Origin: a virus | DNA length: 36,467 bases | Reading direction: 5' to 3' (one strand) | IMG/VR virus record: IMGVR_UViG_3300020414_000004 | Shown here: positions 1 to 36,467 of the stretch, in pieces | Layout: each line of letters opens with the position of its first letter | Numbering within the stretch: position 1 is the stretch's first letter | Notes under the pieces: generated by a model | Database searches by the model: none | Told to the model about the DNA's origin: nothing | The model's input: only the letters and a program-made list of their open reading frames with translations | Program-made: the position numbers and the translations under genes

Positions 1-77
1 GACGACTACCAGGTAAACCAAATAGTAAGCTCGATAAAAGAGTTTGGCTTTACTAACCCTATCCTGGTAGATGACGA
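1..77. repeat. Terminal duplicate (left copy) marking circular closure or terminal redundancy
   Basis: gacgactaccaggtaaacc...ctggtagatgacga is identical to 36391-36467. Confidence 0.95.
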
Positions 78-1233
78 CAATTCAATCATAGCCGGGCACG
101 GCCGTTTAATGGCCGCACAAAAGTTAGGCCTAAAAGAAGTGCCAACAATTAATCTTGGCTATTTATCAGACGCACAAAAAAAAGCGTATGTCATAGCCGA
201 CAATAGATTAGCTCTAAATGCCGGGTGGGATTTAGATATGCTTAAACTTGAAATAGATGACCTGGGCGAACTAGACTTTGATGTCGATATCCTGGGTTTT
301 ACAGATGATGAACTAAAAAATATCCTGGCCGATAAAAATGACGGCCTGGTAGATGAAGACCAGGTACCAGATGTCCAGGACGAACATATTACGAAGCCTG
401 GAGACTTATGGATCCTGGGTGAGCACAGATTATTATGTGGCGACGCTACCCTGGATGCAGACTGCAATAAATTAATGAACGGCCAATTAGCTGATCTTGT
501 TTTTACGGATCCGCCTTACAATGTTGATTATTCTGGTGGTCGAACAGGAAATATAAACGGGAATGACTCACAAAATAAAAAAGAAAAAGGCTACGGCAAA
601 ATAAAGAACGACGCTATGTCGTCTGAACAGTTTAATGAATTCATTGCGGATATATTTGCAAACTATTATTCATATATGAAGTCATTGGCTTGTATATTTG
701 TTTGCCATCCAGACTCAGTAAGTGAGGCCAAGATAACATTCGAGGTTGAATTTGCTAAACATTTTAAAAAGTCCGCCAACATTATTTGGGATAAAGGCCA
801 GGCCGGTCTTGGCTACCAGGATTATCGGGCCCAACACGAGCCAATTCTGTTTGGTTGGAAGCAAGGCGACGGCCAACATTATTTTATCGGGGCCAGAGAT
901 AAGACGACTATTTGGAGAATACAAAAAGACTCAACTATGACTTATGTACACGCTACACAAAAGCCGGTAGCATTGACAGAGGAAGCCATTTTAAATCATA
1001 GTAAAGGTAGCGACATCGTTGCAGATTATTTTGGAGGCTCTGGCTCAACATTAATTGGTTGTGAAAAGTCTGGCCGCAAATGTTATTCAATGGAACTAGA
1101 TCCAAAATATTGCGACGTTATCATTAGACGCTACCAGGAATACACCGGCAAAGATGCAGTCTTAAAGGTCGGCGATAGTCAAACTACATTTAAAGAGTTA
1201 GAAAATGAAAGAGATAAAAAACCAGAAGAATAG
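1..1233 (+). CDS. ParB/Srx-like N-terminal domain fused to a beta-class DNA methyltransferase (3' part of the junction-spanning gene)
   Basis: Frame 1 is open from nt 1. IIAGHGRLMAAQKLG is ParB-like. FTDPPYN (motif IV) precedes DYFGGSGST (AdoMet motif I), the beta-class order of N6A/N4C enzymes. Confidence 0.85.
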   Translation, partial: DDYQVNQIVSSIKEFGFTNPILVDDDNSIIAGHGRLMAAQKLGLKEVPTINLGYLSDAQKKAYVIADNRLALNAGWDLDMLKLEIDDLGELDFDVDILGFTDDELKNILADKNDGLVDEDQVPDVQDEHITKPGDLWILGEHRLLCGDATLDADCNKLMNGQLADLVFTDPPYNVDYSGGRTGNINGNDSQNKKEKGYGKIKNDAMSSEQFNEFIADIFANYYSYMKSLACIFVCHPDSVSEAKITFEVEFAKHFKKSANIIWDKGQAGLGYQDYRAQHEPILFGWKQGDGQHYFIGARDKTTIWRIQKDSTMTYVHATQKPVALTEEAILNHSKGSDIVADYFGGSGSTLIGCEKSGRKCYSMELDPKYCDVIIRRYQEYTGKDAVLKVGDSQTTFKELENERDKKPEE

Positions 1234-1687
1234 TCCAGGTCGTAAAATGAAAGTGCTCACAACTGAGGATTGCGACAGGATCACACAACTGGCCGCAACT
1301 GGCTTGGGTATTATGGATATCTGTAAAACCTTAGGTATTTCCTGGAATGTATGGCAAAGGGAGTCAAAAAAAAGTGAAATAAGTGACGCATTAAAAAAGG
1401 GAGAAAGTTTGGGCCGGGCCAAGATTGTTAATAGCCTCTACCAAAATGCCCTAAAAGGAAGCGTCCCAAGTCAAATATTCTGGCTCAAAAACAAGGGTGG
1501 CGAGGGCGAATGGCAAGACCGCCAGGAGACCGAGATCAATATTAATTTAAAAGACGTCCTGGAAGACGCCAGGGCCAGGATAAATGATCAACAAAATAAC
1601 AACACCAGGATAATAGACGGCGAGAGCCTTGATATAACAGACATTCCCCAGGATAAGCATCTTCCTAAAAAGAATGTTAGTAGCTAA
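1205..1687 (+). CDS. terS: Terminase small subunit
   Basis: HTH-like LAATGLGIMDICKTLGISWNVW and the FWLKNKGGEGEWQDRQE motif are typical of small terminases. It sits upstream of terL. Alternative start at ATG 1247. Confidence 0.75.
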   Translation: MKEIKNQKNSPGRKMKVLTTEDCDRITQLAATGLGIMDICKTLGISWNVWQRESKKSEISDALKKGESLGRAKIVNSLYQNALKGSVPSQIFWLKNKGGEGEWQDRQETEININLKDVLEDARARINDQQNNNTRIIDGESLDITDIPQDKHLPKKNVSS

Positions 1688-1752
1688 TTGCTTATGATTA
1701 AGTCCCACAATTTTGAATTCTCTCCATCCACTTCAAAATGCTTAATCAGAAC

Positions 1753-1793
1753 GGGGGAGGATCTAACTCCTCAGATCCCCCCCCTATTTTTTT
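1753..1793 (+). terminator. Rho-independent terminator-like hairpin downstream of terS
   Basis: gggggaggatct / agatcccccccc forms a 12-bp stem with 1 mismatch and an 8-nt loop, followed by a T-run (tattttttt). Confidence 0.6.
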
Positions 1794-1868
1794 CCGGCAC
1801 CCCTTTTTTGTGCGACTTATGCACTAATTTTTTTTCTGTTTTCAAAGAGCCTGGAGAGTAGTAGCACT

Positions 1869-2219
1869 ATGAAACCGCAATCAGCTAAACAAAAAGGCCG
1901 TATATTACAAAAATGGTTTCGCAACCTATTAATTGAAATATTGGATTTAAACCCGGAAGACCTGGAGTCTAGGCCTATGGGTAGCCAGGGCGAAGATATT
2001 ATTATTGGATCCGAAAGTCGGGCCCGTTTCCCATATGCCACCGAATGCAAAAACCAGGAGGCCGTTAATGTTTGGAAAAGTTATATCCAGGCCCAGGATA
2101 ATAGCGGCAAATATGAGCCGCTACTTGTAATAAAGCGTAATAGATCGTTACCCCTTGTCGTGGTAGACGCCAAACATTTTGTCGAATTAGTAAGGAGAGC
2201 AAATGAACAGCAAATATGA
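1869..2219 (+). CDS. Small PD-(D/E)XK-type nuclease (Hjc/resolvase-like), free-standing between terS and terL
   Basis: 116 aa with a GEDIII...ECK arrangement (D-x(n)-E-x-K). It overlaps the terL start by 17 nt. Confidence 0.5.
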   Translation: MKPQSAKQKGRILQKWFRNLLIEILDLNPEDLESRPMGSQGEDIIIGSESRARFPYATECKNQEAVNVWKSYIQAQDNSGKYEPLLVIKRNRSLPLVVVDAKHFVELVRRANEQQI

Positions 2220-3729
2220 AAAGGAACTTATGGCTTCTATATGGTCGCCAGAAATTAAAGACAGTCCATTAAAATTTGTAAATTTTATTTTTGAGTGGGA
2301 TAAGCCAGGCACCCCCTTGCATAATTTTAAAGGGCCCCGTGCCTGGCAAAAAAAAATTTTACTAGATCTAGAACGGGCCATTGCTAGAAACCAGGGAGAT
2401 ATAACCCCGGAAATGTTTAGACAGGCCGTAGCATCGGGCCGTGGTATTGGAAAGTCGGCCCTGGTGTCCTGGCTAATTTTATGGATGTTATCTACCAGGC
2501 TAGGTAGTACGACTATTGTCACGGCAAACACCGAACAACAATTAAGGTCTAGGACTTGGGCCGAACTAGGTAAATGGTTAACCCTGGCTATTAATAGTCA
2601 TTGGTTTGCAAAAACAGCAACGACCATAAGACCGGCCCCCTGGTTTGATGAGGCCTTGAGAAAAGATTTAAAAATTGACACCGGATATTATTACGCCCAG
2701 GCACAATTATGGTCGGAAGAGTCCCCGGACGCTTTTGCCGGTGTGCACAGTAATTATGGAATTTTATTAATTATGGATGAGGCCTCTGGTATACCAGGCT
2801 CTATTTATTCAGTTAGTGAGGGTTTCTTTACAGAGCCAACGCCAGATAGATTTTGGTTTGCTTTTTCTAACCCCAGGAGAAATAGCGGCCCGTTTTATGA
2901 GTCATTTCATAGTGCCAAAAGTTATTGGAACACCGAGCAAATAGACTCCAGGACAGTCGAGGGTACAGACAAAGAATTATTTAATAAAATGCTAGAGCAG
3001 TACGGAGAAGAGTCTAGCGTGGCCAGGGTTGAGGTTATGGGAGAATTTCCCAGGTTTGATGACGACACAGTTATTGGAATGGATCTAATAAGGTCGGCCA
3101 TTGATAGAGATGTTGCACTTACCGGATCCGAACCGATAGTTTGGGGCCTTGATGTAGCCAGGCAAGGTAGCGACCAGAGTGCTTTATGTATTCGCCAGGG
3201 TAATCATATTCTCGAAATACGAACTTATAATTCGATGGACTTGATGCAATTATGTGGAGCGATAAAAAACAAATACGACGACGAGCAAACTAACAACAGG
3301 CCGCAAGAAATATTAATTGATGTTATTGGTATTGGGGCCGGGGTTGTTGACAGATTAGCCGAACAGAATTTACCTGTTAGAGGTATTAATGTTGCAGAGA
3401 GCCCGGCGTCTAGAAAGAATTATTTAAACCTTAGAGCCGAGTTATGGTTTGCGGTTAGAGATTGGTTGGCGGGGCGTGATGTCCGGATTCCCAACGACGA
3501 TGGTCTAGTGACAGAATTAGCCTCGCCAATTTACAAATATACATCAACGGGAAAAATTAAAATTGAGTCTAAAGAAGAAATGAGAAAAAGAGGAATCAAG
3601 TCGCCGGACAAAGCAGACGCCCTGGCACTAACGATGGGATCAAGTGCGGCCGCCTTTAGTGTAAAAGATTCTTTTATGGGATATAATTTTAAGAAACCCC
3701 TAAAGTCTAAAATTTACAGAGTAGGTTAA
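2203..3729 (+). CDS. terL: Terminase large subunit
   Basis: Walker A-like GRGIGKSALVS and Walker B LLIMDEASG, plus a C-terminal nuclease-like half. Typical size and position before the portal. Confidence 0.9.
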   Translation: MNSKYEKELMASIWSPEIKDSPLKFVNFIFEWDKPGTPLHNFKGPRAWQKKILLDLERAIARNQGDITPEMFRQAVASGRGIGKSALVSWLILWMLSTRLGSTTIVTANTEQQLRSRTWAELGKWLTLAINSHWFAKTATTIRPAPWFDEALRKDLKIDTGYYYAQAQLWSEESPDAFAGVHSNYGILLIMDEASGIPGSIYSVSEGFFTEPTPDRFWFAFSNPRRNSGPFYESFHSAKSYWNTEQIDSRTVEGTDKELFNKMLEQYGEESSVARVEVMGEFPRFDDDTVIGMDLIRSAIDRDVALTGSEPIVWGLDVARQGSDQSALCIRQGNHILEIRTYNSMDLMQLCGAIKNKYDDEQTNNRPQEILIDVIGIGAGVVDRLAEQNLPVRGINVAESPASRKNYLNLRAELWFAVRDWLAGRDVRIPNDDGLVTELASPIYKYTSTGKIKIESKEEMRKRGIKSPDKADALALTMGSSAAAFSVKDSFMGYNFKKPLKSKIYRVG

Positions 3730-3734
3730 AAGTT

Positions 3735-5870
3735 ATGGCACAAGAAGATAAGTACGAAATGGATGAGCAAGAATATGACTCACAAGAATTATCATCAATT
3801 ATTAAAACAGAAATGGACGACGCTCGTGACTTCATTGACCAAATTGGTCAAGAACGAGCAGAAAACACAGACTATTATTTAGGGGCCGAGCCTGTAAATG
3901 GTAGCGAACTCCAGTCAGAATATGTCAGCACAGATGTAAGAGACAGCGTTTTATTTATGATGCCGTCTATAATGCGTACTTTTTTCGGATCCAAAAAAAT
4001 TGTTGAATTTGTCCCCCAGGGGCCAGAGGACATAGAGTTAGCTGAACAACAAACCGACTATATAAATTATGTGATCACACAAAAAAATAATGGTTTCCAG
4101 GTTTTATATAATGCTTTCAAAGATGCACTAATTAGAAAGGCCGGGTTTGTTAAAGTTTATTATGACGAGGGCCTAACAGTCACAAACCACAGTTATACAA
4201 ATTTAACATCAGACCAACGCCAGGCATTACTCCAGGACATAGAGGTAGAAATTGTAAAAGAAAAAACCGAGGAAATGACCAGGGAGGTTTATGACGACAG
4301 CACGGGCCAACAAATAACACAATCTATCCCGCTAAGATACGACATAGACATTAGGCGTGTAAAAAAGAAAAACAAAGTTTGCGTTGATGCCGTGCCGCCA
4401 GAGGAAATTTTAATATCCAGGGACGCCAGGACAATAGAAACCGCAAGTTATGTGGCCCACCGCCGCTTGATGACAGTTTCAGAATTAGTATCGATGGGTT
4501 ATGACCTAGAAGAGGTCGAGCAATATGCCGGGGCCGGGAACTACTTAGATCCAGAAACGCAAAACGAAATACAGGCCAGAAACCCTTTTAATGATGTCAC
4601 GGGCCCAGATAGAGCAGACTCTAAAGAGGTCTATTATGTAGAGCACTATTTGCATTATGACCTAGACGGCGATGGCATAGACGAAAGAATTAAAGTTTGC
4701 ACGGCCGGAGAAGGTTGCAATATTTTATTTATAGAGCCTTGCGACGAGCTACCAATAGCAATGTTCTGTCCGGATCCAGAGCCACACACGGCGATAGGAT
4801 CGTGCCCGGCCGATTATTTGAAACCTATTCAAGCGGCTAAATCACAAATAATGAGAGATAGCCTGGACAGTTTGGGCCACGCTATTTTCCCCAGGTATGC
4901 AGTCGTTGAGGGCCAGGTAAATTTAGAAGACTTAATGAACACCGATATTGGTCAACCAATTAGGCAAAGAGCTCCTGGCCAAATTCAAGCATTGACGACA
5001 CCTTTTGTCGGCAAGGAAGCGTTCCCGGTTATGAACTACCTGGACAATGTTAAAGAAGAACGCACGGGAGTTTCTAAAGCATCGATGGGCCTAAACGCAG
5101 ACGCTTTACAATCATCAACAAAAGCGGCCGTCGTTGGCACAATGAGTGCGGCCCAGGGCCGTATAGAATTAATTTGTCGTCATTTTGCAGAAACAGGCCT
5201 TAAGCCATTATTTAGAATTGTAAATAATGTCGTAATAAGAAACCAAAACGAGCAAGATGTTTTCAAATTAAATAATAAATTTATTCCGGTAGATCCTAAA
5301 TTTTGGGATATCAATAAAGACATACAAGTCAATGTTGCTATTTCTAAATCAAGCGACGAGGAAAAAGCGGCCGTCCTGGCAAGTCTTTTAACCAAACAAG
5401 AGATGATTTTAGAAAAGTTAGGCCCTAACAACCCGTTAGTGACAGGCCAACAATACGCTAACGCTATGACTAAATTTATTGAGTTAGCCGGTTTTAAAGA
5501 CGCACAACAATTTATAAACACTCAAGTCGCCCCAACGCCACCACCTAGTCCGGAACAACAAAAACCAGACGCCCAGGAAATGTTGGCAATGGCCGAGAGT
5601 GAAAAAGCAAAAGCATCGGCAAATAAAGCTATCGTCGACGCTGAAAATGACAGACTTAAAATTCTTATGGATGACGATTTCAGAAGAGACCAGGCCCAGG
5701 CCGACGCAATATTAAAAGTGATGGAACTAAATGCTAAATATGGCACAGAACTAACTATGGCGGAAATAAATGCGTACCTGGAAAGAGATAAAGAAGAAAT
5801 TAGACAACGAAACAAGTCTGTCGGACTTAACGGATCATCTACTGGAAACCCTGGCGGCCAACCGCAGTAA
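3735..5870 (+). CDS. Portal protein
   Basis: 711 aa immediately after terL, with an acidic N-terminus and a long helical C-terminal barrel-like tail. Synteny supports the call. Confidence 0.85.
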   Translation: MAQEDKYEMDEQEYDSQELSSIIKTEMDDARDFIDQIGQERAENTDYYLGAEPVNGSELQSEYVSTDVRDSVLFMMPSIMRTFFGSKKIVEFVPQGPEDIELAEQQTDYINYVITQKNNGFQVLYNAFKDALIRKAGFVKVYYDEGLTVTNHSYTNLTSDQRQALLQDIEVEIVKEKTEEMTREVYDDSTGQQITQSIPLRYDIDIRRVKKKNKVCVDAVPPEEILISRDARTIETASYVAHRRLMTVSELVSMGYDLEEVEQYAGAGNYLDPETQNEIQARNPFNDVTGPDRADSKEVYYVEHYLHYDLDGDGIDERIKVCTAGEGCNILFIEPCDELPIAMFCPDPEPHTAIGSCPADYLKPIQAAKSQIMRDSLDSLGHAIFPRYAVVEGQVNLEDLMNTDIGQPIRQRAPGQIQALTTPFVGKEAFPVMNYLDNVKEERTGVSKASMGLNADALQSSTKAAVVGTMSAAQGRIELICRHFAETGLKPLFRIVNNVVIRNQNEQDVFKLNNKFIPVDPKFWDINKDIQVNVAISKSSDEEKAAVLASLLTKQEMILEKLGPNNPLVTGQQYANAMTKFIELAGFKDAQQFINTQVAPTPPPSPEQQKPDAQEMLAMAESEKAKASANKAIVDAENDRLKILMDDDFRRDQAQADAILKVMELNAKYGTELTMAEINAYLERDKEEIRQRNKSVGLNGSSTGNPGGQPQ

Positions 5871-6039
5871 GGTTTTTCATTTAGAGGCCGTTGCCGAGGA
5901 CAGATTATTCGTTGGCACAGAAATAAAAGCCGACACTTATGAAGAGGCCGAGCTTTATTTAAGATTAGTTTTCAGAGAGGCATTATTAGACAACGATAAA
6001 ATTGAAATAGTAAAAGTAAGTGAGGAATGGCTACATTAA
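5770..6039 (+). CDS. Hypothetical protein overlapping the portal 3' end by 101 nt in another frame
   Basis: This is the only open frame covering the 5871-6026 gap. The only in-frame start codon is ATG 5770. Confidence 0.45.
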   Translation: MRTWKEIKKKLDNETSLSDLTDHLLETLAANRSKVFHLEAVAEDRLFVGTEIKADTYEEAELYLRLVFREALLDNDKIEIVKVSEEWLH

Positions 6040-6326
6040 TGGAAGATATAAGCGACAAAAGCAAATTAACTTTTTCTTTGCCTTATCTAATTCAGATAAT
6101 TGGGGCCATCGGTGCTCTTACTTATACTTATGTGACTTTGACTGAACAAGTAAACACCCTGGATAGCCAGGTTATTTCATTAAAGGCCGACGTAAAAGAA
6201 CTTGCACAATGGCAACGAGAGTGGGAAAGCGGAGGCATATTGCCCCTGGATGTCGAGCAAAATGAAAAAATAAAGTACCTGGAGAAAGAGGTCGGCAAAT
6301 TACACGAGACAATATACGGAAATTAA
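6027..6326 (+). CDS. Membrane-anchored coiled-coil protein, hypothetical
   Basis: One TM segment (LPYLIQIIGAIGALTYTYVTL) followed by a coiled coil. The likely start is ATG 6039 (TAATG overlap). Confidence 0.6.
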   Translation: MATLMEDISDKSKLTFSLPYLIQIIGAIGALTYTYVTLTEQVNTLDSQVISLKADVKELAQWQREWESGGILPLDVEQNEKIKYLEKEVGKLHETIYGN

Positions 6327-6327
6327 T

Positions 6328-6606
6328 ATGGCAAAAGATCCAAGACTAAAAAGAGCCGGGGTATCGGGTTATAACAAGCCTAAAAGAACGCCTGGACACA
6401 AAACTAAGAGCCACGTTGTCGTCGCAAAGAGCGGAGATAAAATAAAAACGATTAGGTTTGGCCAACAAGGAGTCTCCGGGGCCGGAAAAAGTCCGTCAAG
6501 TGCAAAAGACAAGGCCAGACGAAAGTCATTTAAGGCCCGACACGCAAAAAATATCGCTAAAGGCAAAATGAGTGCTGCTTATTGGGCCAACAAAACTAAA
6601 TGGTAG
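6328..6606 (+). CDS. Highly basic small protein, hypothetical
   Basis: 92 aa, rich in K/R (KPKRTPGHKTKSH, ARRKSFKARHAKNIAKGK). Confidence 0.65.
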   Translation: MAKDPRLKRAGVSGYNKPKRTPGHKTKSHVVVAKSGDKIKTIRFGQQGVSGAGKSPSSAKDKARRKSFKARHAKNIAKGKMSAAYWANKTKW

Positions 6607-6615
6607 GAGGTAATA

Positions 6616-6792
6616 ATGCCAAAAAAGAAAAGACCAGGACTTTATAAAAATATTCACGCCAAACGGGCCAGGATCAAGGCCGGATCTGGCGAGAAAATGC
6701 GTAAGCCAGGAACTAAAGGGGCCCCAACGGCCAAGGCTTTCCGACTTGCCAAAAAAACTGTTAAAAAACCAACCAAAAAAAGGAGGGCATAA
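6616..6792 (+). CDS. Highly basic 58-aa protein, hypothetical
   Basis: Not in the ORF track (under 60 aa). SD ggagg lies 6 nt upstream. Sequence: MPKKKRPGLYKNIHAKRARIKAGSGEKMRKPGTKGAPTAKAFRLAKKTVKKPTKKRRA. Confidence 0.55.
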   Translation: MPKKKRPGLYKNIHAKRARIKAGSGEKMRKPGTKGAPTAKAFRLAKKTVKKPTKKRRA

Positions 6793-6863
6793 TGCCAGGA
6801 TATCATTACGGAAAACCCAAAAAGGCTAAAAAGAAAAAGTCAAAAAAAGGTAAGAAAAAATGA
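6792..6863 (+). CDS. 23-aa lysine-rich peptide, hypothetical
   Basis: MPGYHYGKPKKAKKKKSKKGKKK. TAATG overlap upstream, ATGA overlap downstream, and SD aggagg upstream. Confidence 0.35.
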   Translation: MPGYHYGKPKKAKKKKSKKGKKK

Positions 6864-7018
6864 AGCGAAAAACTTTAACTAAAAGGCAACAAGACACTTT
6901 GAAAAGGCATAGTGCCCACCACACTAATAAGCATATGGCAGAAATGAGACGACTTATGCGTGGGGGCAAAACTTTTACAGAGAGTCATAAAATTGCTATG
7001 AAAAAAGTCGGCAAATAA
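6860..7018 (+). CDS. Basic 52-aa protein, hypothetical
   Basis: MKRKTLTKRQQDTLKRHSAHHTNKHMAEMRRLMRGGKTFTESHKIAMKKVGK, with start/stop overlaps on both sides. Confidence 0.45.
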   Translation: MKRKTLTKRQQDTLKRHSAHHTNKHMAEMRRLMRGGKTFTESHKIAMKKVGK

Positions 7019-7143
7019 TGTCTAAGGGATCGGATCCAAGACCAATGAAAGTTAATAAAGAAACTTTTGACGCCAACTGGGACAAAATTTTTAAAACTAA
7101 GAGGAAAACAAATGATCGAAAGTCTATTAAAACCGGCGTCTGA
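7018..7143 (+). CDS. 41-aa protein with an FDANWDKIF motif, hypothetical
   Basis: MSKGSDPRPMKVNKETFDANWDKIF..., TAATG-coupled to the previous ORF. Confidence 0.35.
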   Translation: MSKGSDPRPMKVNKETFDANWDKIFKTKRKTNDRKSIKTGV

Positions 7144-7528
7144 TATTATTGGAAAATTTGTCAAAGACAAAGACCTCCAGGCTAAATTAGACCACGAACT
7201 GCAAACTTTATTTCACCAGGCTAATATGGCCCAGATTGAATTATTAAAAGAGGATGCAAAATCAAAAAATTGGTTTCAAAACTCCTGGCGACCAAGTGTC
7301 GGTTGGATATGTTCTATTGCCCTGGGTGTTCATTTCGTTATTTTACCAATAGCAGAATGGGCCGCACGTATATCGGGCGTAGATGTAGATTTGCCAGAGT
7401 TTGATTTCACACAATTATCAACAATATTGATGGCTATGCTTGGAATGAGCGGCTTAAGATCATACGACAAGTCAAATTTATTGAAAGAAAAAACAAAAGT
7501 AGCAAAAGAAATTATAGATCCTCGCTAA
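7112..7528 (+). CDS. Holin, GTA-type 3TM holin-like
   Basis: SD aagagga precedes ATG 7112. N-terminal MIESLLKPASDIIGKFVKDKD, then WRPSVGWICSIALGVHFVILPI and further TM segments. Located upstream of the endolysin. Confidence 0.65.
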   Translation: MIESLLKPASDIIGKFVKDKDLQAKLDHELQTLFHQANMAQIELLKEDAKSKNWFQNSWRPSVGWICSIALGVHFVILPIAEWAARISGVDVDLPEFDFTQLSTILMAMLGMSGLRSYDKSNLLKEKTKVAKEIIDPR

Positions 7529-7719
7529 TGTTAATGTTCCTCACAGAAATAAAAGCTATTTCGTCAACGGGCCAGGAACATTTATTTAGTGGGCCCATAA
7601 TTAAGGCTTTAAGTTTTGAGGACGCCCAGGAAAAAGCAATAAAAATGAACCCAGATTTAATGATCGTAGGCGAATACCTGGGCCATATAGGAGTGTTTAA
7701 TGATTTGGAACTTTCCTAA
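7528..7719 (+). CDS. Hypothetical protein in the lysis cassette
   Basis: 63-aa ORF, start overlaps the holin stop. Confidence 0.5.
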   Translation: MLMFLTEIKAISSTGQEHLFSGPIIKALSFEDAQEKAIKMNPDLMIVGEYLGHIGVFNDLELS

Positions 7720-8074
7720 TTTCAATCCGGAAGAGTTTGCTTGTCAGCATTGCGGCAAACAAGGAATATCGCTTGACCTGGTTTCTAAATTACAACAACT
7801 AAGGACTAAGGTAGATATGCCTCTAAAAATATCCTCCGGGTATCGTTGCGACGACCATCCAATAGAGAAAAAGAAAAAAGTAAAAGGAACACACAATAAA
7901 GGCCTGGCGGCAGACATCTTGTGTTATGGAGCCGATGCTCATAAAATATTATGTGCGGCAACCGAACTAAATTTTTCCGGAATAGGTGTTAATATGAAAG
8001 GAGACCATAAGCAGAGGTTTATTCACTTGGATATATCTAAGGCGAATAATCGACCTACTGTCTGGAGTTATTAA
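7700..8074 (+). CDS. Endolysin, zinc peptidase M15 (D-Ala-D-Ala carboxypeptidase-like) family
   Basis: SSGYRCDDHPIEKK...GTHNKGLAADI...RFIHLDIS matches the H-x(n)-D-x(n)-H metal site layout of M15 peptidases. Confidence 0.8.
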   Translation: MIWNFPNFNPEEFACQHCGKQGISLDLVSKLQQLRTKVDMPLKISSGYRCDDHPIEKKKKVKGTHNKGLAADILCYGADAHKILCAATELNFSGIGVNMKGDHKQRFIHLDISKANNRPTVWSY

Positions 8075-8076
8075 TT

Positions 8077-8316
8077 ATGGAATTGACACCTTATTTAGTC
8101 TGGAATGTTATTTTAACCCTGGTATACGCCCCGCTTGTTTATGGGATCCGTCAAAATAGCCAGGAGTTAAAAAGAGTCGATATTTTACTAAATAAAACTA
8201 GGGAGGAAATGTCTAAAGACTATGTTTCAAAAATCGATAATGAGCGTGATATGGACAGGCTTTTGAGTCGATTTGACAAACTTGAGGAAAAAATAGACCA
8301 AATATTAAATGGATAA
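8077..8316 (+). CDS. Spanin-like protein or membrane-anchored lysis accessory protein
   Basis: N-terminal TM (LVWNVILTLVYAPLVYGI) plus a charged coiled coil, directly after the endolysin. Confidence 0.45.
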   Translation: MELTPYLVWNVILTLVYAPLVYGIRQNSQELKRVDILLNKTREEMSKDYVSKIDNERDMDRLLSRFDKLEEKIDQILNG

Positions 8317-8569
8317 ACAAAAAGAGATAAATGACGGCCAAGAGGCCGAAAGACTCCTGGAAAGTGATGTCTTTAAAAGTGCTTTTAATAATTACAAAAA
8401 TGAGTTAATAAAAGAATGGGAATCAACCTCGGCTAAAGACCTGGACACACGGGAGAATCTTTACCGGGCATTAAAAGTTTTACCAGAGGTAGAACGACAT
8501 TTAAGAATCATCGTCGAAAAAGGGAAACTAAATTCTAAGGACTTTAATGTTTTAAGAAAAGTTTCTTAA
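8309..8569 (+). CDS. Conserved phage protein (Bbp19-like by motif impression)
   Basis: 86 aa with ERLLESDVFKSAF...RENLYRALKVLPEVERHLRIIVEKG, upstream of the scaffold. Confidence 0.5.
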   Translation: MDKQKEINDGQEAERLLESDVFKSAFNNYKNELIKEWESTSAKDLDTRENLYRALKVLPEVERHLRIIVEKGKLNSKDFNVLRKVS

Positions 8570-8577
8570 GGTGGCTA

Positions 8578-8607
8578 TTGTAATTTTTACAGTAGTCGTG
8601 AGATAAT
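8578..8607 (+). promoter_or_regulatory. Sigma70-like promoter candidate for the scaffold/capsid genes
   Basis: ttgtaa, 18 nt, gataat. It contains GTAGTCGT (8592-8599), which also occurs at 36197-36204. Confidence 0.3.
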
Positions 8608-8626
8608 TTAACTAGAGGACACGAAT

Positions 8627-9634
8627 ATGAGCGATAACAACGAGACCGCTTCTCAAGATCCAACAGAAAAAGCCGAGTCTATTTTCCTGGATATGCTTAC
8701 TCCCGAAGAGGAAAAACAAGCAGAGCCAGAACAAGAGACAGAGCAAGAAGAGTCGGAAGAAACGGAAATAGAGACTGAGGTAGAGGCGGAAGCTGAAACC
8801 GAGGAAGAAATAGAAGAGGAAGCCGACGAGCGATCCGAAGAGGACGAAGTAGAAGACCAGGGCGAAGAGGAGCCTCAAGTTTTCACTGTTAATGTAAACG
8901 GAGAAAATTTGGAGGTAGACCTTGACGAGCTAAAGGCCGGATACAGTCGTCAGAAAGATTACACAAAAAAGACACAAGAGGTAGCAGAGCAGAGAAAACT
9001 TGCCGAACAACAACAGCAAGAATTTAATGCTAAAAATCTCGAACTGTCTGAGGAAAGAGCGTTATATAACGACTTATTACCTAAGATGCAGATGATGATA
9101 AAAAATAATCTGCGACAAGAGCCGAATTGGCAACAGTTAATCGACCAGGATCCTCAAGAATATTTGAGGCAAAAGGAAGAGTGGAATAAAACAGGCGAAA
9201 CGCTGAAATTTGTAGAAAACGAAATGAATCGTTTGAAACAAGAGCAAGAACTTGAAAGCCAGGCGGCTTTAAGATCACAAGCGGTAGAAGGCCAAAAGCT
9301 AATAGACGAGAAAATTCCAGAATGGAAAGACAACGAATTAGCAAAAAAAGAAGCTGAGTCAATGATGACTTATGCAAAAGGTTTAGGTTTCACTCAAGAA
9401 GAACTGTCACAAATTTATGACGGGCGACTTATTCTCTTATTGAGAGACGCTTGGTCACACAGCAAAGTAAAAAAGGCCGTGAAGACCAAACCGAAAGAAG
9501 CTCCGGCAAGAATTTCTAAGCCAGGAAACTCTAACAAAATCAAAAGTAATACTCCGTTAAAGAACGCTAAATCGAAACTAAGGAAAAGCGGAAGCGTAAG
9601 CGATGCGGCCAAGGTTTTCGAGCAACTTTTATAA
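8627..9634 (+). CDS. Scaffolding protein
   Basis: Directly upstream of the capsid gene. Extremely acidic N-terminal tract followed by long coiled-coil-like K/E/Q-rich sequence. Confidence 0.7.
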   Translation: MSDNNETASQDPTEKAESIFLDMLTPEEEKQAEPEQETEQEESEETEIETEVEAEAETEEEIEEEADERSEEDEVEDQGEEEPQVFTVNVNGENLEVDLDELKAGYSRQKDYTKKTQEVAEQRKLAEQQQQEFNAKNLELSEERALYNDLLPKMQMMIKNNLRQEPNWQQLIDQDPQEYLRQKEEWNKTGETLKFVENEMNRLKQEQELESQAALRSQAVEGQKLIDEKIPEWKDNELAKKEAESMMTYAKGLGFTQEELSQIYDGRLILLLRDAWSHSKVKKAVKTKPKEAPARISKPGNSNKIKSNTPLKNAKSKLRKSGSVSDAAKVFEQLL

Positions 9635-9665
9635 CAACTAAATAATCTTTAAGGAGGATTATAAA

Positions 9666-10607
9666 ATGGCAAAAGTCACAAATGCTTTTACTACTTATGA
9701 TGCTACTGCGGATCGTGAAGAACTATCGAACACGATTTTTAACATTGATCCATCAAGTACACCATTTATGTCAGCACTAGGAACTAAGAACGTTTCTAAT
9801 GTTGTTTTCGATTGGCAAACTGAAAACTTACCGGCGGTAAGTGCAACAGGAGAAATTGAAGGTTTTGAAATTTCTCGTGCGGCATCTACTCCAACTGTAA
9901 GGGAAAGTAATGTTTGTCAAATTAACTCAGTCAATGCGACAATTTCCGGATCTCAAGAAGGTAGTGACCCGGCGGGTAAAAGGTCAGAAATGGCACACCA
10001 ACTCGCTATTATGTCTAAGGCCCTTAAGAGAAATATGGAAACTGCATTGTGCCAAAACCAGGCTAAAAATGCCGGTAATGCTTCAACTGCAAGAGCTACA
10101 AGATCTTTCGAGGCTTGGGTTTCTACTAATGTAAGCAGAGGTACTGGGGGAGCTAACGGATCCGCAAGTGCGGCCGCTACTGATGCCTCTTCTGGAAACA
10201 GACGAGCACTAACTGAAGCACTTTTGAAAGGTGTTTTACAGTCTATGTTTACAAATGGAGCAGAGCCTAAATTAGCAATCGCCGGGCCAGTAAATAAACA
10301 AGTTATTTCTGGTTTTACTGGAAGAGCTAACACTAGAGCGACTGTTGATGTAAACACAGTAAGCTCAAGCGTTTCAATTTATGCGTCTGATTTCGGAAAT
10401 CTAGAAATAATTCCGTCAAACAGAAGCAGAGACAGGTCTCTACTTTTAGTAGATCCAGAGTACGCTAAAGTGTGTTTCTTAAGAAACTTTAAAACAGTAG
10501 ACATCGCCGCTATCGGTGATGCTGAAACTAAACTATTACTCGCTGAGTATGGTTTGGAAGTTTCTAACGAAGCCGCTCACGGAATCGTAGCTGATTTAAC
10601 TACATAA
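9666..10607 (+). CDS. Major capsid protein (DUF5309/HK97-fold type)
   Basis: Strong SD aaggagg. The N-terminus TYDATADREELSNTIFNIDPSSTPFMSALGTK...FDWQTENL is typical of this capsid family. 313 aa. Confidence 0.85.
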   Translation: MAKVTNAFTTYDATADREELSNTIFNIDPSSTPFMSALGTKNVSNVVFDWQTENLPAVSATGEIEGFEISRAASTPTVRESNVCQINSVNATISGSQEGSDPAGKRSEMAHQLAIMSKALKRNMETALCQNQAKNAGNASTARATRSFEAWVSTNVSRGTGGANGSASAAATDASSGNRRALTEALLKGVLQSMFTNGAEPKLAIAGPVNKQVISGFTGRANTRATVDVNTVSSSVSIYASDFGNLEIIPSNRSRDRSLLLVDPEYAKVCFLRNFKTVDIAAIGDAETKLLLAEYGLEVSNEAAHGIVADLTT

Positions 10608-10614
10608 TAAATAT

Positions 10615-10645
10615 TGGGGCCCTGGTTTATTCTCCTGGGGCCCCA
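10615..10645 (+). terminator. GC-rich hairpin after the capsid gene (attenuator/terminator-like, no clear U-tract)
   Basis: tggggccc(tgg)...(cct)gggcccca. Confidence 0.45.
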
Positions 10646-10657
10646 CTATGATCAGCT

Positions 10658-10948
10658 ATGAAAAGAACAACGCTCATTGCCAATAAATCTGGCCTTAAAA
10701 CTGAATTCCACACGGAAGACGGAAAGGGAGTCACAACGACTACCCAGGATGTCAGCAATACTATTGGTTATGTTAAGCAACTAAGAGATAACGCCCCTGG
10801 GAAAGATTTACGTCACGTAGCAGAGGTGCCCCTGGTCATCTGGGAAAAAGCAGTCCAGGAAGGTTGGCACAAAGACAAAGCAAAGTGGCGTCAATGGTTA
10901 AACAACCCAGACAACGCCATTTTTAGAACTTGGCCAGGAAAGGTTTGA
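10658..10948 (+). CDS. Conserved hypothetical head-module protein
   Basis: 96-aa ORF with VPLVIWEKAVQEGWHKDKAKWRQWLNNPDNAIFRTWPGKV. Confidence 0.6.
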   Translation: MKRTTLIANKSGLKTEFHTEDGKGVTTTTQDVSNTIGYVKQLRDNAPGKDLRHVAEVPLVIWEKAVQEGWHKDKAKWRQWLNNPDNAIFRTWPGKV

Positions 10949-10949
10949 T

Positions 10950-11600: not shown

Positions 11601-11620
11601 ATTATAAGGAGGAACTTACT

Positions 11621-12004: not shown

Positions 12005-12016
12005 TAGAGGTCTTTA

Positions 12017-13594: not shown

Positions 13595-13609
13595 AAAATA
13601 GGAAATATT

Positions 13610-16180: not shown

Positions 16181-16183
16181 ATT

Positions 16184-21286: not shown

Positions 21287-21288
21287 TT

Positions 21289-26120: not shown

Positions 26121-27194
26121 ATGCAAACTAGAAAAACAGATAACAAAAATACTAACCTGGTTATGATCACACGCCATTTTAAGGACGATATTTCATTGCC
26201 AACTTATACAACCTATTATGCAAAACTGTATGAAAAGGGCCGCAAAAACCCCAGGTTAAAAAAAATAGGAATATCAACCGAGCAAGTTAGCCTGGCGGTT
26301 ATGCGGGAACGATGCCGCTTGTACATTGAGGAACACGGCCGTTTCGGTAGGTCAAGCCACACACTTGACCAGGCTTTTTATGAAATCTATTTAGGCGAAC
26401 TAAAAAAGAAATCAGCTAAAACAATCGACGACATAAAAAGAAATTATGAAAAAGATATAAAGCCTCATTTTGGCAAAATGCTTATGAGCGATATTGATTC
26501 GCCAATGATATTGTCCTGGTTTAATAAATTAACCGAACGAACTGAGGGCGGGGCCAACCATTGTTTGTCAATTTTAAAAGCTATGTTTACTTTATGTATG
26601 GCCCTAGGGGTTTGTAAGCACAACCCTTGTTTGCCTATTAAGAAGAACCCGGACAAGGAAAGAACTAGGTCATTTACCCAGGGGGAACTAATTGCTTTTA
26701 GGGCCGCATTAAAAGAAGCTAAGTCCAGGTCAATTTATGCCTGGAGTTTTATTATGCTAATGTTTTTGACTGGGGCCCGAAAAGGCGAACTAGCCAGGGC
26801 AACTTGGGGCGACATAAAAGGCGAAAGCATAGTTTTAACGGATCACAAAACCAAACATAAAACCGGCAAGGATAGATATATTTATTTAAACGACCTTGCA
26901 AAAGCTGTAATAAATAATTTACCAGTCGGCCAGGATCACGAAACAATTTTAAAAATCAAGGATCCTAGAACTGTTTGGGAAACTATGATGCGAAAAGCAA
27001 ATATAAAAGATTTTAGAATGCACGACTTAAGGCACAATTTTGCCTCGGCCGGTGTAAATAGTGGCTTAGATATTATTAGAACGGCCGCATTAACGGGCCA
27101 TATGAGTTTGAATTCTATGAAAAGGTATCAAAGGCCTAATATTGAAAGGAAGTTAAAAGACACAAAAATAATTGAAAATCAATTAACCAATTAA
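26121..27194 (+). CDS. int: Tyrosine recombinase (phage integrase)
   Basis: LTGARKGEL (Arg), HDLRHNFAS (His-x-x-Arg), GHMSLNSMKRY (His ... Tyr). Confidence 0.9.
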   Translation: MQTRKTDNKNTNLVMITRHFKDDISLPTYTTYYAKLYEKGRKNPRLKKIGISTEQVSLAVMRERCRLYIEEHGRFGRSSHTLDQAFYEIYLGELKKKSAKTIDDIKRNYEKDIKPHFGKMLMSDIDSPMILSWFNKLTERTEGGANHCLSILKAMFTLCMALGVCKHNPCLPIKKNPDKERTRSFTQGELIAFRAALKEAKSRSIYAWSFIMLMFLTGARKGELARATWGDIKGESIVLTDHKTKHKTGKDRYIYLNDLAKAVINNLPVGQDHETILKIKDPRTVWETMMRKANIKDFRMHDLRHNFASAGVNSGLDIIRTAALTGHMSLNSMKRYQRPNIERKLKDTKIIENQLTN

Positions 27195-27631: not shown

Positions 27632-27829
27632 ATGGAAAGCTCTATAAAATTATTAACAACTAAAGAGGTCGCCGCCTTTTTAAAGATCAGTCCAGTGACT
27701 TTAGAAATGTGGAGAGCCGAAAACAAAGGCCCAAAATTTATTAAAGTGGGCCGCTATGTGAGATATAGCACGACTGATTTAGCAGAATATGTGAGGAGAC
27801 AAACCCGTGGAACTGATCCAGGCCAATAG
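27632..27829 (+). CDS. Excisionase/AlpA-family HTH DNA-binding protein
   Basis: LLTTKEVAAFLKISPVTLEMWRAENKGPKFIKVGRYVRYSTTDLAEYV. Confidence 0.75.
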   Translation: MESSIKLLTTKEVAAFLKISPVTLEMWRAENKGPKFIKVGRYVRYSTTDLAEYVRRQTRGTDPGQ

Positions 27830-34636: not shown

Positions 34637-34935
34637 TTTTTTAACATCTCTTTCCAGGCCTTTTTAATTTTTGCCTGGCTTAGTTTATCAAAGACCTCAA
34701 GGGGATAAATATTTCTATCGCCAAAGCCAATGTCGTCCTTAACCTGGTATGAAGCAAAAGTCTTAACATACTCACGGCCGTCAATTACCTGGATGTCATA
34801 TAAATAACAATCCGTGTGAATTTCACAGCATTTCATTTTATTAAAGTCATCGGGCCCAACTGTCGTTGCATCCCCGGCAATATCTATCCACATTAAATTT
34901 AATTTTTTATGGTAGCGTTCTCCTATTTTAATCAT
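34633..34935 (-). CDS. Hypothetical early protein
   Basis: 100 aa from ATG 34935 (MIKIGERYHKK...). The track start at 34941 is a TTG. Confidence 0.6.
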   Translation of the reverse strand: MIKIGERYHKKLNLMWIDIAGDATTVGPDDFNKMKCCEIHTDCYLYDIQVIDGREYVKTFASYQVKDDIGFGDRNIYPLEVFDKLSQAKIKKAWKEMLKK

Positions 34936-35107
34936 CCTCAATCAACCCACCTTTCGCCTGGTACTTGTCATATAAAAAATCTAAATTTGTGATCACATAA
35001 TCATTATAGGTAATTGAGTCCTCTTGATAGGCCCGTCTTTCCCTATTGGCCTCTAGCCACATTAAATGGCAAAAAGATTTAAAAGATATTTCTAATTGAT
35101 CTGTCAT
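34928..35107 (-). CDS. 59-aa hypothetical early protein
   Basis: MTDQLEISFKSFCHLMWLEANRERRAYQEDSITYNDYVITNLDFLYDKYQAKGGLIEDD, just under the track cut-off. Confidence 0.5.
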   Translation of the reverse strand: MTDQLEISFKSFCHLMWLEANRERRAYQEDSITYNDYVITNLDFLYDKYQAKGGLIEDD

Positions 35108-35253
35108 TTACCCTGGCCTCTATATTTTTTAAATGAGCGTTTGCGGTTTTTATTCATTGTACTAAAGCCAATGTTGCCTAGACCTTGACTGGTCTTTTTT
35201 CCCCTGGATCCACAAACGCTCTGATGTTTGGTTTCTCTGTATTTATTAACCAT
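35104..35253 (-). CDS. 49-aa basic hypothetical protein
   Basis: MVNKYRETKHQSVCGSRGKKTSQGLGNIGFSTMNKNRKRSFKKYRGQGK. ATGA overlap downstream. No clear SD. Confidence 0.35.
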   Translation of the reverse strand: MVNKYRETKHQSVCGSRGKKTSQGLGNIGFSTMNKNRKRSFKKYRGQGK

Positions 35254-35265
35254 AGGAGTGCCGGG

Positions 35266-35532
35266 TCAAAATCGATGGGGGGGAGTTAGGGGAGTAAGAT
35301 CTTGCCCGACACCTTGTATTCTTGTTTCTAATTGGTAATGAATATATTTATTTATGGCCTGTAAAAGTCGCTCGGCTTCCGGCTTTATGTCTGTCTTATT
35401 ACCGGTTAATAAATATCTACTCATTTTTGCATAAATTTGCGGTAATGCCTGGGGGCCGTCATTTATAAACTCGTCTTTATGAGCCTCAAAAAAATCCTGG
35501 GCCAAGGCATTCAAGTCGCCTGTATTAACCAT
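35266..35532 (-). CDS. Hypothetical early protein
   Basis: SD aggagg before ATG 35532 (MVNTGDLNALAQDFF...). Confidence 0.6.
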   Translation of the reverse strand: MVNTGDLNALAQDFFEAHKDEFINDGPQALPQIYAKMSRYLLTGNKTDIKPEAERLLQAINKYIHYQLETRIQGVGQDLTPLTPPHRF

Positions 35533-35734
35533 AGTTTTCCTCCTGGATATTATGACCATTGAGTGTGTTGTGATTGACCTGGGCCCCTCTTTGCAACTCC
35601 TCGTGCTTTTGTCTTAACTCCAGGGCCTTATCTTTAAGCTCTTGCTCAAACTGTTTTGGGATCCACACAGTAGATCTAACCAAACCCTTTTCTTTGTTTC
35701 TTTGAGCATACCTCTCCTGGTTTTTATATTTCAC
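35525..35734 (-). CDS. Putative ribbon-helix-helix type DNA-binding regulator
   Basis: GTG start with SD aggagag. ERYAQRNKEKGLVRSTVWIPKQFEQELKDKALELRQ resembles RHH/copy-control regulators. Confidence 0.45.
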   Translation of the reverse strand: MKYKNQERYAQRNKEKGLVRSTVWIPKQFEQELKDKALELRQKHEELQRGAQVNHNTLNGHNIQEENYG

Positions 35735-35817
35735 AATTCTCTCCTGTAATGTTGGGGGGTGTTTTTAGAACTAAAATATTCCTATTCATAAAATAGTCGC
35801 TCAAATGGTCGTCCTAT

Positions 35818-35991
35818 TTAGTAGTCTATTATTTCTAAGTTATTCAATCGTTCTTTTTTAGTTCGGATTTTGGATATTTCTAAATCCCAAAGAACGGCCT
35901 TATTGGCCTCACGATCTATTCGTGTGATCAAACAGAAATAAGTAGTCCCTAATATTCTAACCTTTTGACCTGGTCTGAATGTTAGCTCCAC
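35818..35991 (-). CDS. 57-aa hypothetical early protein
   Basis: GTG start overlaps the stop of the upstream gene. Sequence: VELTFRPGQKVRILGTTYFCLITRIDREANKAVLWDLEISKIRTKKERLNNLEIIDY. Confidence 0.35.
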   Translation of the reverse strand: MELTFRPGQKVRILGTTYFCLITRIDREANKAVLWDLEISKIRTKKERLNNLEIIDY

Positions 35992-36176
35992 TCTCCTCTC
36001 GCTTTTTCGTGTAAATTAATTAGATACTTTTTTTGTACCAGGACATCATAACCAGACTCCTTAAGGCTCCTGGCTTTATCTTCGGCTAATTTTTCATCTC
36101 TAAATTGATTCCAAATGTAGCCGCCTAAATCTGGCATAAAATATCCAACCTTGTAAATTACTTGAGTATGTTCCAT
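35982..36176 (-). CDS. First gene of the leftward early operon, hypothetical
   Basis: Strong SD aaggagg before ATG 36176. 64 aa. Confidence 0.65.
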   Translation of the reverse strand: MEHTQVIYKVGYFMPDLGGYIWNQFRDEKLAEDKARSLKESGYDVLVQKKYLINLHEKARGEWS

Positions 36177-36312
36177 TTATAACCTCCTTAAGTAATGTAG
36201 TCGTATTATAACTGATATAGTACGACCACAACAAGTGTCCGGGCCTCGGACTGTTCACGGATTCTAAAATCACTTAAAATATATCGGATAATTTTTTTAT
36301 GGATGGAACACA
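36177..36312. promoter_or_regulatory. Divergent early control region
   Basis: 136-nt non-coding region between the leftward operon and the ParB-MTase gene. Contains the inverted repeat gtagtcgta-N15-tacgaccac (36197-36229). Confidence 0.45.
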
Positions 36313-36467
36313 ATGACAAACGCAGCACAAGAAATTAAAACTCTCCAGGTAAAGGATTTAATTCCTTACGCCAGGAACAGCAGAACGCACGACGACTACC
36401 AGGTAAACCAAATAGTAAGCTCGATAAAAGAGTTTGGCTTTACTAACCCTATCCTGGTAGATGACGA
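36313..36467 (+). CDS. 5' end of the ParB/Srx-like domain-DNA methyltransferase fusion gene (continues at nt 1 across the junction)
   Basis: ATG at 36313 gives MTNAAQEIKTLQVKDLIPYARNSRTHDDYQVNQIVSSIKEFGFTNPILVDD, in frame with nt 1 through the 77-nt overlap. Confidence 0.8.
   Translation, partial: MTNAAQEIKTLQVKDLIPYARNSRTHDDYQVNQIVSSIKEFGFTNPILVDD
36391..36467. repeat. Terminal duplicate (right copy)
   Basis: Identical to nt 1-77. Confidence 0.95.

Follow-up and report, generated by a model that had tools for sequence, protein, structure and literature searches.

Why would a phage genome multiply the short palindromes that restriction-modification (R-M) enzymes read? The question is raised by IMG/VR virus record IMGVR_UViG_3300020414_000004, a DNA stretch of 36,467 nucleotides (hereafter, the window) in which GGCC, CCWGG, and GGATCC occur many times more often than base composition predicts. 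An earlier note, made from the letters of this stretch, had reported a multi-motif excess of classical R-M targets and attributed it to a general mechanism, such as several host methyltransferase/repair pairs or a structural role of GC-clamp palindromes. This excess is confirmed, and all three words belong to the classical targets of type II R-M enzymes or methyltransferases. A general R-M-like mechanism also fits, since about a dozen other R-M words are purged from the window and the same words are purged or amplified across its relatives; neither a Dcm/Vsr-like methyltransferase/repair pair of the host nor a structural role does. The pattern is also larger than that note described: the amplification of some restriction-type palindromes is accompanied by the loss of others, in a lineage-specific manner, in what, judging from its integrase and attachment site, is a temperate phage of SAR11, the most abundant bacterium of the ocean.

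Three palindromic words are amplified throughout the window

Word counts were made over the whole window, whose G+C content is 40.3%, and compared with the expectation from base composition. GGATCC is present in 34 copies against 5.2 expected (6.6-fold), exactly the number and very nearly the expectation (about 5) given in the earlier note. GGCC is present in 308 copies against 59.2 (5.2-fold), and the 13 copies previously counted in nucleotides 1 to 1200, where about 2 are expected, were all recovered. The corresponding figures are 315 and 35 for CCWGG (9-fold), 35 and 2.4 for CGGCCG, and 23 and 2.4 for GGGCCC; CCGG has 143 copies. The window is a complete circular phage genome with a true length of 36,390 bp, its ends (positions 1–77 and 36391–36467) being identical over the 77 nt by which the circular assembly overlaps. 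Without this overlap, the counts are 308 for GGCC, 313 for CCWGG, and 34 for GGATCC. The GGATCC sites start at 410, 507, 2007, 3124, 3987, 4772, 7032, 8144, 17777, 18912, 32103, 32283, and 35206, among other positions; several of those listed before were exact, and some were off by 1 to 9 nt. Together, GGCC, CCWGG, GGATCC, and CCGG make up 9.2% of the sequence but hold 20% of all its G+C, and non-palindromic GC words in the window are less enriched than palindromes.

The size of the excess depends on the null model. Order-1 Markov simulations gave z = 21.6 for GGCC, 40 for CCWGG, and 12.3 for GGATCC, and order-3 models gave 10.5 for CCWGG, for which this order is maximal, and 6.6 for GGATCC. 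At maximal order, the scores of the other two words become modest: the order-2 model, maximal for a 4-mer, predicts 252 GGCC (z = 4.4), and the order-4 model, maximal for a 6-mer, predicts 25.6 GGATCC (z = 1.8). Overall, maximal-order scores are moderate for GGCC (4.4 to 5.6) and small for GGATCC (1.8 to 3.0), the latter being marginal because the halves GGATC and GATCC already hold the excess. This correction, proposed in the earlier note, does not overturn the excess.

Coding sequence was treated with a codon-aware null, in which synonymous codons were shuffled while the amino acid sequence and codon usage were kept. Relative to this null, GGCC occurs 290 times against 113 (z = 20), GGATCC 31 against 5.2 (z = 12.5), CCAGG 171 against 40 (z = 24), and CCTGG 124 against 29 (z = 22). 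Site density is nearly equal in non-coding DNA (6.5 to 7.2 per kb over 2.9 kb) and in coding DNA (8.6 to 8.8 per kb). The synonymous shuffling and the similar non-coding density rule out codon usage or amino acid sequence as the cause. Within genes, the majority of GGCC sites are read as xxG|GCC and the majority of CCWGG sites as xxC|CWG|Gxx, so placed that 98 of 148 CAG and 78 of 99 CTG codons lie inside CCWGG.

Nesting within CCWGG-containing strings, the other trivial source considered in the earlier note, is ruled out as well: 64 of the 308 GGCC and 7 of the 34 GGATCC sites overlap CCWGG, which accounts for ~20% of sites. GGCC and CCWGG are found genome-wide with Poisson-like spacing, their coefficients of variation (CV; 0.99 and 1.08, respectively) being equal to random. 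The 34 GGATCC sites are somewhat more evenly spaced than random (circular CV of 0.69 versus 0.96 ± 0.15, P = 0.013). No longer consensus was found in the flanks of the words. The one-nucleotide neighbors of GGCC are present at 0.73 to 1.5 times expectation and follow no positional rule. Among neighbors of CCWGG, GCWGG and TCAGG are absent, yet they are absent also from relatives without CCWGG excess and are therefore independently purged words.

Other restriction-type words are purged from the same genome

Several palindromes are missing from the window altogether: CATG (128 expected), GCGC (59 expected), and CGCG (59 expected). ACGT is reduced to 18 copies against 128 expected, and GGWCC, GCWGG/CCWGC, TCAGG/CCTGA, ACCGT/ACGGT, GTWAC, CAATTG, ATGCAT, and GCCGGC are present in zero or one copy. 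For this set, the window displays restriction-site avoidance, with type II palindromes far below expectation; for the amplified words, it displays the reverse. It is unusual for a phage with an integrase to have lost about a dozen words of restriction type completely or nearly so.

Some words are affected on one strand. On the + strand, CAAATC is absent, compared to 14.4 copies expected on the sense strand, and its complement GATTTG is present in a normal number (11). Likewise, CTGAC has 0 copies versus 29 for GTCAG, and CTGTG has 1 copy versus 36 for CACAG. These strand-asymmetric words could reflect selection at the mRNA level or on asymmetric sites.

Barring some words from a sequence may passively enrich others. 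The extent of such compensation was estimated with a forbidden-word null, in which synonymous codons were swapped on condition that none of 57 words missing from the window arose. The expectation rose to 156 for GGCC (290 observed), 55 for CCAGG (171 observed), 37 for CCTGG (124 observed), 6.9 for GGATCC (31 observed), and 8 for CGGCCG (33 observed). The same null explains most of CCGG (120 expected versus 135 observed) and GATC (109 versus 129). Compensation thus covers roughly a quarter (~25%) of the GGCC excess, an eighth (~12%) of that of CCWGG, and almost none of that of GGATCC. As the sole source of the excess of these three words, passive compensation for the purge fails.

Word sets flip between related phages

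Relatives were collected with the SU10-type portal protein of the window (3735–5870, + strand) as a query, which yielded 80 IMG/VR contigs (referred to by L numbers) with portals 63 to 90% identical to it. GGCC, CCWGG, and GGATCC are amplified in L046 and L052, as in the window; in L052, the purged words are CATG, GGWCC, and GCWGC. L053 to L056 amplify CCWGG, GATC, and GGATCC and purge every CpG palindrome, while many other relatives amplify GCGC, CGCG, and CGCGCG 2- to 4.6-fold and purge CCGG. Finally, L047 and L048, whose portals are 80 to 82% identical to that of the window, have no strong amplification (GGCC at 2.3- to 3.4-fold), nearly no CCWGG, and no GGATCC. Since such close sisters purge CCWGG and GGATCC, the words are not structurally required, and the structural role suggested for GC-clamp palindromes can be set aside.

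The flip is visible at individual sites. Of the window CCWGG sites with orthologous positions, 0 of 47 are kept in L047 and 1 of 62 in L048, compared to 16 to 17% of GC-rich control 5-mers (P = 1e-4 and 2e-4). In enriched relatives, CCWGG sites are over-conserved instead (58% versus 33% of controls in L046; 32% versus 17% in L052). When loci were pooled, GGATCC occurred 137 times against 24 expected (5.8-fold) in the 14 CCWGG-rich loci and 6 times against 96 (0.06-fold) in the other 67, a 100-fold swing between CCWGG states; GCGC, CGCG, and GCWGC run the opposite way. The CCWGG-rich loci are scattered over portal-identity classes, so that switching must have occurred repeatedly.

All words amplified in the clade (GGCC, CCWGG, GGATCC, GATC, GCGC, CGCG, CAGCTG, and GCWGC) are classical methyltransferase or R-M targets. 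Total G+C content varies little across the clade, irrespective of which words are enriched, and G+C outside the words is 35.4% in the window versus ~38 to 40% in relatives with little enrichment. Enrichment strength rises with the number of purged words, and one relative, L085, has a G+C content of 40% without any strong enrichment.

Two side observations concern other word sets. Over whole loci, L053 to L056 have a CpG observed/expected ratio (o/e) of 0.21 to 0.23, which is an approximately fivefold depletion; their CpG-containing palindromes are at or near zero, and GATC is enriched 3- to 4-fold. This pattern looks like that of a CpG-directed pressure. The cultured Pelagibacter phage HTVC106P (L129, MN698244.1; host HTCC7211) has CCGG, CGCG, and GGCC at 0/24 each, GCGC at 2/24, and several CG-containing 4-mers at 0 of ~50 to 59, with GCWGC enriched 5-fold and TGCA 2-fold. 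HTVC106P is thus also subject to two-sided sculpting, with different words.

Amplified sites are retained and purged sites are lost

Substitutions were compared between the window and L051, a relative 95% identical to it. At fourfold degenerate sites, 7.8% of positions differ inside the words versus 13.6% outside (Fisher P = 0.002); at third positions occupied by G or C, the values are ~7 and 15%. In a simple mutation-selection model, loss at about half the neutral rate would correspond to S of ~1 to 1.5 per site, and this would predict a 3- to 4-fold excess, close to that seen over the codon-aware null. The opposite process can also be followed: 10 aligned CATG sites of L051 have each been lost in the window through point changes, and therefore the purge is actively maintained in the window lineage.

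L051 also contains a divergent 2.2-kb tail-fiber segment (19954–22133) in which GGCC and CCWGG occur at 2.75 per kb, versus 8.3 to 8.5 per kb elsewhere, and forbidden words are four times more frequent than elsewhere. The segment looks like a recently imported module that has yet to be reshaped. As this DNA is neither enriched nor purged, both features would be acquired jointly in the resident lineage.

Gene content, predicted host, and lifestyle

The genome belongs to an SU10-type podophage, with the portal (Pfam SU10_portal, PF23899, 8.7e-189), a major capsid protein (PF17236, 1.9e-81), and an adaptor (PF24175). It also encodes a large terminase, tail fibers, an M15 endolysin, a Cas4-like exonuclease, Sak4, and a primase-helicase. 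A tyrosine integrase gene (26121–27194, + strand; Pfam Phage_integrase 1.2e-17, phrog_1 1e-49) is followed by a gene for an HTH_17 excisionase-like regulator (27632–27829, + strand; Pfam 4.8e-12, with matches to PHROG excisionase/regulator families). Upstream of the integrase lies a predicted attP core (25159–25198, + strand), whose 40 nt reproduce without mismatch the 5′ half of SAR11 tRNA-Ser(GCU), reaching from position 1 as far as the anticodon loop; the tRNA gene was called by ARAGORN in the SAR11 locus L008 and aligned to the core. tRNA and Rfam scans of the window itself found nothing. In GTDB species-representative genomes, a 24-mer of the core matches 40 contigs, all of Pelagibacteraceae or Pelagibacterales. 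Because the core copies a tRNA-Ser that matches Pelagibacterales exclusively, the predicted host is SAR11. The same match rules out a cyanobacterial host, suggested by the purge of AvaII/AvaIII-like sites and a match to a Microcystis phage. The integrase, together with an attP that duplicates part of a tRNA gene of the host, marks the predicted lifestyle as temperate. The only CCTGC of the genome, at 25190, lies inside the attP core, where it is retained because the core must stay identical to the host tRNA; the purge thus halts only where the sequence is otherwise fixed.

Near-identical genomes (99.6 to 99.9% over long matches) were assembled as ~36.4-kb contigs from many marine samples, those of Tara Oceans included. 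No portal relative was found in GTDB species-representative genomes, every integrase-bearing contig was a free ~36.4-kb genome or a fragment thereof, and the predicted attR junction was not found in metagenome contigs. Megablast of window bases 1 to 20000 against GenBank phages gave no match.

The words are not amplified in host DNA. In 296 kb of SAR11 DNA surrounding the tRNA gene (loci L006 to L045; 32% G+C), o/e is 1.0 for GGCC, 0.8 for CATG, and 0.8 for GCGC. CCWGG stands at 2.4, the same as GCWGG and CCWGC; TCAGG, GCWGG, and CCWGC, purged from the window, are over-represented there. Host composition is therefore rejected as a cause of the excess.

Candidate enzymes

The only methyltransferase in the genome is a predicted fusion of a ParB N-terminal domain and a β-class N6/N4 DNA methyltransferase, encoded across the circular junction (36313–36467 and 1–1233, + strand; with the 77-nt overlap counted once, 36313–36467 joined to 78–1233). 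Its motif IV is DPPY, and its nearest characterized relatives are adenine methyltransferases such as CcrM. When the proteins of the window, L048, L068, L074, and L080 were compared, the ParB and catalytic parts were conserved and the central target-recognition region was hypervariable, the variable segments following DPPY and preceding HxTQKP, a motif that reads HATQKP in the window. This suggests frequent changes of specificity. L048, a CCWGG purger, has an ortholog with 69% identity; the CCWGG-rich L052, L095, L117, and L118 have no such gene in the syntenic interval. As its presence or absence does not covary with the CCWGG state, this enzyme is unlikely to cause the enrichment.

No Vsr or C5-methyltransferase was detected by Pfam, NCBIfam, or PADLOC matches among the window open reading frames (ORFs) searched, and no C5 motif IV (PCQ) was present in window ORFs of 80 amino acids or more; a phage-encoded cytosine methyltransferase is accordingly rejected as the cause for the ORFs searched. 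A small PD-(D/E)XK nuclease, PDDEXK_5-like (24675–25118, + strand; Pfam 3.6e-5, below the curated cutoff), was considered as a Vsr-like enzyme. It had no sequence match in PDB, and its structure model (pLDDT of 57) was too poor for a structure search, which leaves this assignment without sequence support.

Five small early ORFs of 59, 49, 97, 57, and 64 amino acids (34928–36176, − strand) could not be assigned to a family. By tblastn presence/absence, their homologs are almost all found in L052 to L056, which have the strongest CCWGG/GGATCC excess; none was found in the CCWGG-rich L095, L117, and L118, whose contigs cover the interval. These ORFs may simply be a marker of a shared host.

Cytosine-C5 methyltransferases were found in four other relatives: L097 (2600–3961), L098 (2533–3726), L100 (1985–3238), and L123 (2691–4217). 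Their ends are conserved and their modular centers are shuffled, recalling multispecific phage methylases. Among these carriers, L098 and L123 are the GCGC/CGCG-rich ones.

Discussion

The excess of GGCC, CCWGG, and GGATCC is real, and it is not produced by codon usage, nesting in CCWGG, passive compensation, or host composition. We consider weak selection on whole words, tied to R-M and methylation status, to be the most likely mechanism, with a probability of roughly one in three (about 0.35). Palindrome-reading R-M enzymes would then shape short-word content simultaneously in two opposite directions. Words subject to cleavage in some part of the host population (among them CATG, GCGC, CGCG, GGWCC, GCWGG, and TCAGG) would be eliminated, and GGCC, CCWGG, and GGATCC would be kept and multiplied genome-wide by weak selection or by biased fixation acting on the whole word. 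We infer that the amplified words are reliably methylated, and hence uncuttable, on phage DNA in the home host; a small per-site advantage could come from G+C inside protected palindromes or from the dense methyl marks themselves. The methylating activity would more likely be supplied by a host-strain enzyme or an unrecognized phage function than by the ParB-methyltransferase. Word-level selection would leave neighbor words undepleted, and general whole-word protection would do likewise.

Published data are compatible with such methylation in the sea. In a marine methylome survey, methylation of CCWGG and GGCC was seen on viral genomes only (PMC9516812). Viral metagenome-assembled genomes (MAGs) from the sea frequently carry N4-methylcytosine (m4C) at CCWGG, GGWCC, and RGCY (PMC8919816), and type II R-M systems occur in Pelagibacterales single cells (bioRxiv 10.64898/2026.09.15.751803).

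A bolder version of word-level selection, which we regard as speculative and rather improbable as a whole, is that each R-M specificity sets a SAR11 phage lineage to either purge or amplify the corresponding word. Reliable methylation would flip selection toward multiplying the word, and dense methylated palindromes, at about one per 55 bp, would serve as a cheap substitute for hypermodification and a general shield against DNA-targeting defenses.

Several points weigh against weak selection tied to methylation. Methylation of the amplified words in this phage is itself deduced, and standard R-M logic never favors extra sites over none; any benefit of dense methylated sites is hypothetical. 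Methylated motifs are usually under-represented, e.g., GANTC in Alphaproteobacteria, and the SAR11 methylomes and MAGs described so far show GANTC/GAWTC methylation only (PMC8919816). The sole methyltransferase of the phage has an adenine-type DPPY motif; it is present in the CCWGG-purging L048, and the syntenic interval lacks it in the CCWGG-rich L052, L095, L117, and L118. Searches of GTDB species-representative genomes, and of metagenomes for the predicted attR junction, recovered no lysogen. Last, the estimate of S comes from a single genome pair.

Among the alternatives, the one that survives best, although we think it doubtful, is biased mutation instead of selection: a methyltransferase coupled to very-short-patch or methyl-directed mismatch repair would turn near-sites into full sites and protect existing ones. 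Dcm/Vsr raises CCWGG in E. coli. The slower substitution inside the words and the lineage flips, which a change of methyltransferase would bring about, agree with such a drive, and so do the highly iterated palindromes (HIPs) of cyanobacteria, which follow the specificity of the resident methyltransferase and for which a repair model was proposed (PMC4390886). The precursor words tell otherwise. A single-edge drive yielding a 4- to 9-fold excess should have emptied them, and they are undepleted: CTAGG 22 versus 18.1 expected, CTTGG 26 versus 27.1, CCTAG 16 versus 14.8, GGTC 70 versus 70.4, and GACC 77 versus 85; CCAAG is the only low one (24 versus 46). The undepleted CTWGG/CCWAG and GGTC/GACC rule out the Vsr-type form of the drive. 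The absence of any excess from SAR11 DNA and of a detectable Vsr or C5-methyltransferase from the phage points the same way, and with these findings the host methyltransferase/repair pairs of the Dcm/Vsr kind favored earlier lose their footing. To our knowledge, SAR11 also lacks MutLS.

Somewhat less likely still is a refuge effect, in which the clade holds 35 to 40% G+C for other reasons, changing restriction enzymes purge GC words, and G and C survive by passive enrichment in words that are never cut. It would account for the similar G+C content across the clade, for the lower G+C content outside the words in the window, for the rise of enrichment with the number of purged words, and for most of the CCGG and GATC excess under the forbidden-word null. 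That null fails precisely for the three main words, as seen above, and non-palindromic GC words, which are safer, are less enriched; nor does L085 need strong enrichment to hold its 40% G+C.

We give only a slim chance to the idea that the words form binding-site arrays for a DNA-binding protein specific to the lineage, encoded among the small early phage genes or supplied by the host, that would act in condensation, silencing, or as an anti-defense decoy, with more sites being better. Whole palindromic words are recognized, the effect looks dose-like, and the small early ORFs (34.9 to 36.2 kb) have homologs almost only in L052 to L056. Three or four distinct words, though, demand several proteins or one with an odd specificity; the early ORFs, which have no known fold or family, are absent from the CCWGG-rich L095, L117, and L118; and the R-M-type nature of all amplified words would be left as a coincidence.

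Very unlikely, in our view, is self-methylation armor, in which the ParB-methyltransferase of the phage would itself be an m4C enzyme reading these words. The N6/N4 family does include m4C enzymes for GGATCC, CCWGG, and GGCC, the center of the enzyme is hypervariable in relatives, and the virus-only methylation of CCWGG and GGCC in marine data would suit it. The DPPY motif, the kinship with adenine methyltransferases such as CcrM, and the distribution of the gene, including its 69%-identical ortholog in a CCWGG purger, argue against it.

An artefact of chance, base composition, or codon usage, to which the low maximal-order Markov scores might lend some color, is effectively refuted by z = 12 to 40 under lower-order and codon-aware nulls, by enrichment in non-coding DNA, and by relatives that have the same proteins and are not enriched.

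Relation to known systems

The cyanobacterial HIPs are the closest analog of the words described here. HIP1 (GCGATCGC) and alternate HIPs are likewise GC-rich palindromes that are many-fold over-represented genome-wide, within and between genes, and vary by lineage in a way that coincides with methyltransferase-type targets. Which palindrome is iterated follows the specificity of the methyltransferase, and how HIPs arose is a matter of continuing debate (PMC4390886), as is their function (PMC4390886, PMC5861425). The words in the window differ in being 4 to 6 nt long rather than 8, in that several are amplified together, and in being a feature of a 36-kb phage that its host does not share. In addition, no cognate cytosine methyltransferase was found in the phage, sister lineages purge the words that are amplified here, there is no bias toward deviation at the first or last base, and GGCC and CCWGG lack quasi-periodic spacing (CV of about 1).

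Restriction-site avoidance in phages is matched by the elimination of type II palindromes (CATG, GCGC, CGCG, and GGWCC) from the window, and depletion of GANTC in pelagiphages has been reported (PMC9516812). The gain of 5- to 9-fold seen here has the opposite sign. Furthermore, complete elimination of sites has been reported mainly for non-temperate phages (PMC6286503), unlike the window phage with its integrase and attP.

The oriented Chi and DNA uptake sequences also reach frequencies far above expectation as short words through selection on their number; they are non-palindromic and enriched in host chromosomes, whereas the words considered here are palindromes and the host is unenriched. 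In E. coli, Dcm/Vsr leads to an excess of CCWGG and a deficit of CTWGG. The phage shares with this bias an over-represented CCWGG and a suspected methylation, but its excess is of a much greater size, CTWGG/CCWAG show no deficit, no vsr or dcm was found, and host DNA is unenriched. The multispecific C5-methyltransferase of Bacillus phage SPR targets GGCC, CCGG, and CCWGG. This triple equals the set amplified in the window, and the modular C5-methyltransferases encoded by L097, L098, L100, and L123 are of a similar build. No enzyme of the C5 type was found in the window, and the Bacillus phage enzymes protect existing sites, with no amplification of sites described for them.

A benefit of extra sites is not covered by any established model, and it is this gap that makes the finding interesting. 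The pattern points to a lineage-specific arms race of restriction and methylation, with its site-gain side unexplained. SAR11 is usually portrayed as nearly defenseless, yet this abundant phage and its relatives bear the deepest kind of restriction imprint, together with its mirror image, the amplification of palindromes, with swings of ~100-fold from one sister lineage to another. Should the amplified words turn out to be methylated, the word usage of phages would provide a culture-free readout of the methylases and restriction enzymes present in SAR11 populations and would also tell which phage infects which ecotype. In that case, these phages would further offer a small, fast-evolving, and recodable model for the long-standing HIP question, for which HTVC106P may already serve. 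If dense palindromes do act as a shield, they would represent a new anti-defense principle and a readable record of the hidden R-M pan-immunity of SAR11.

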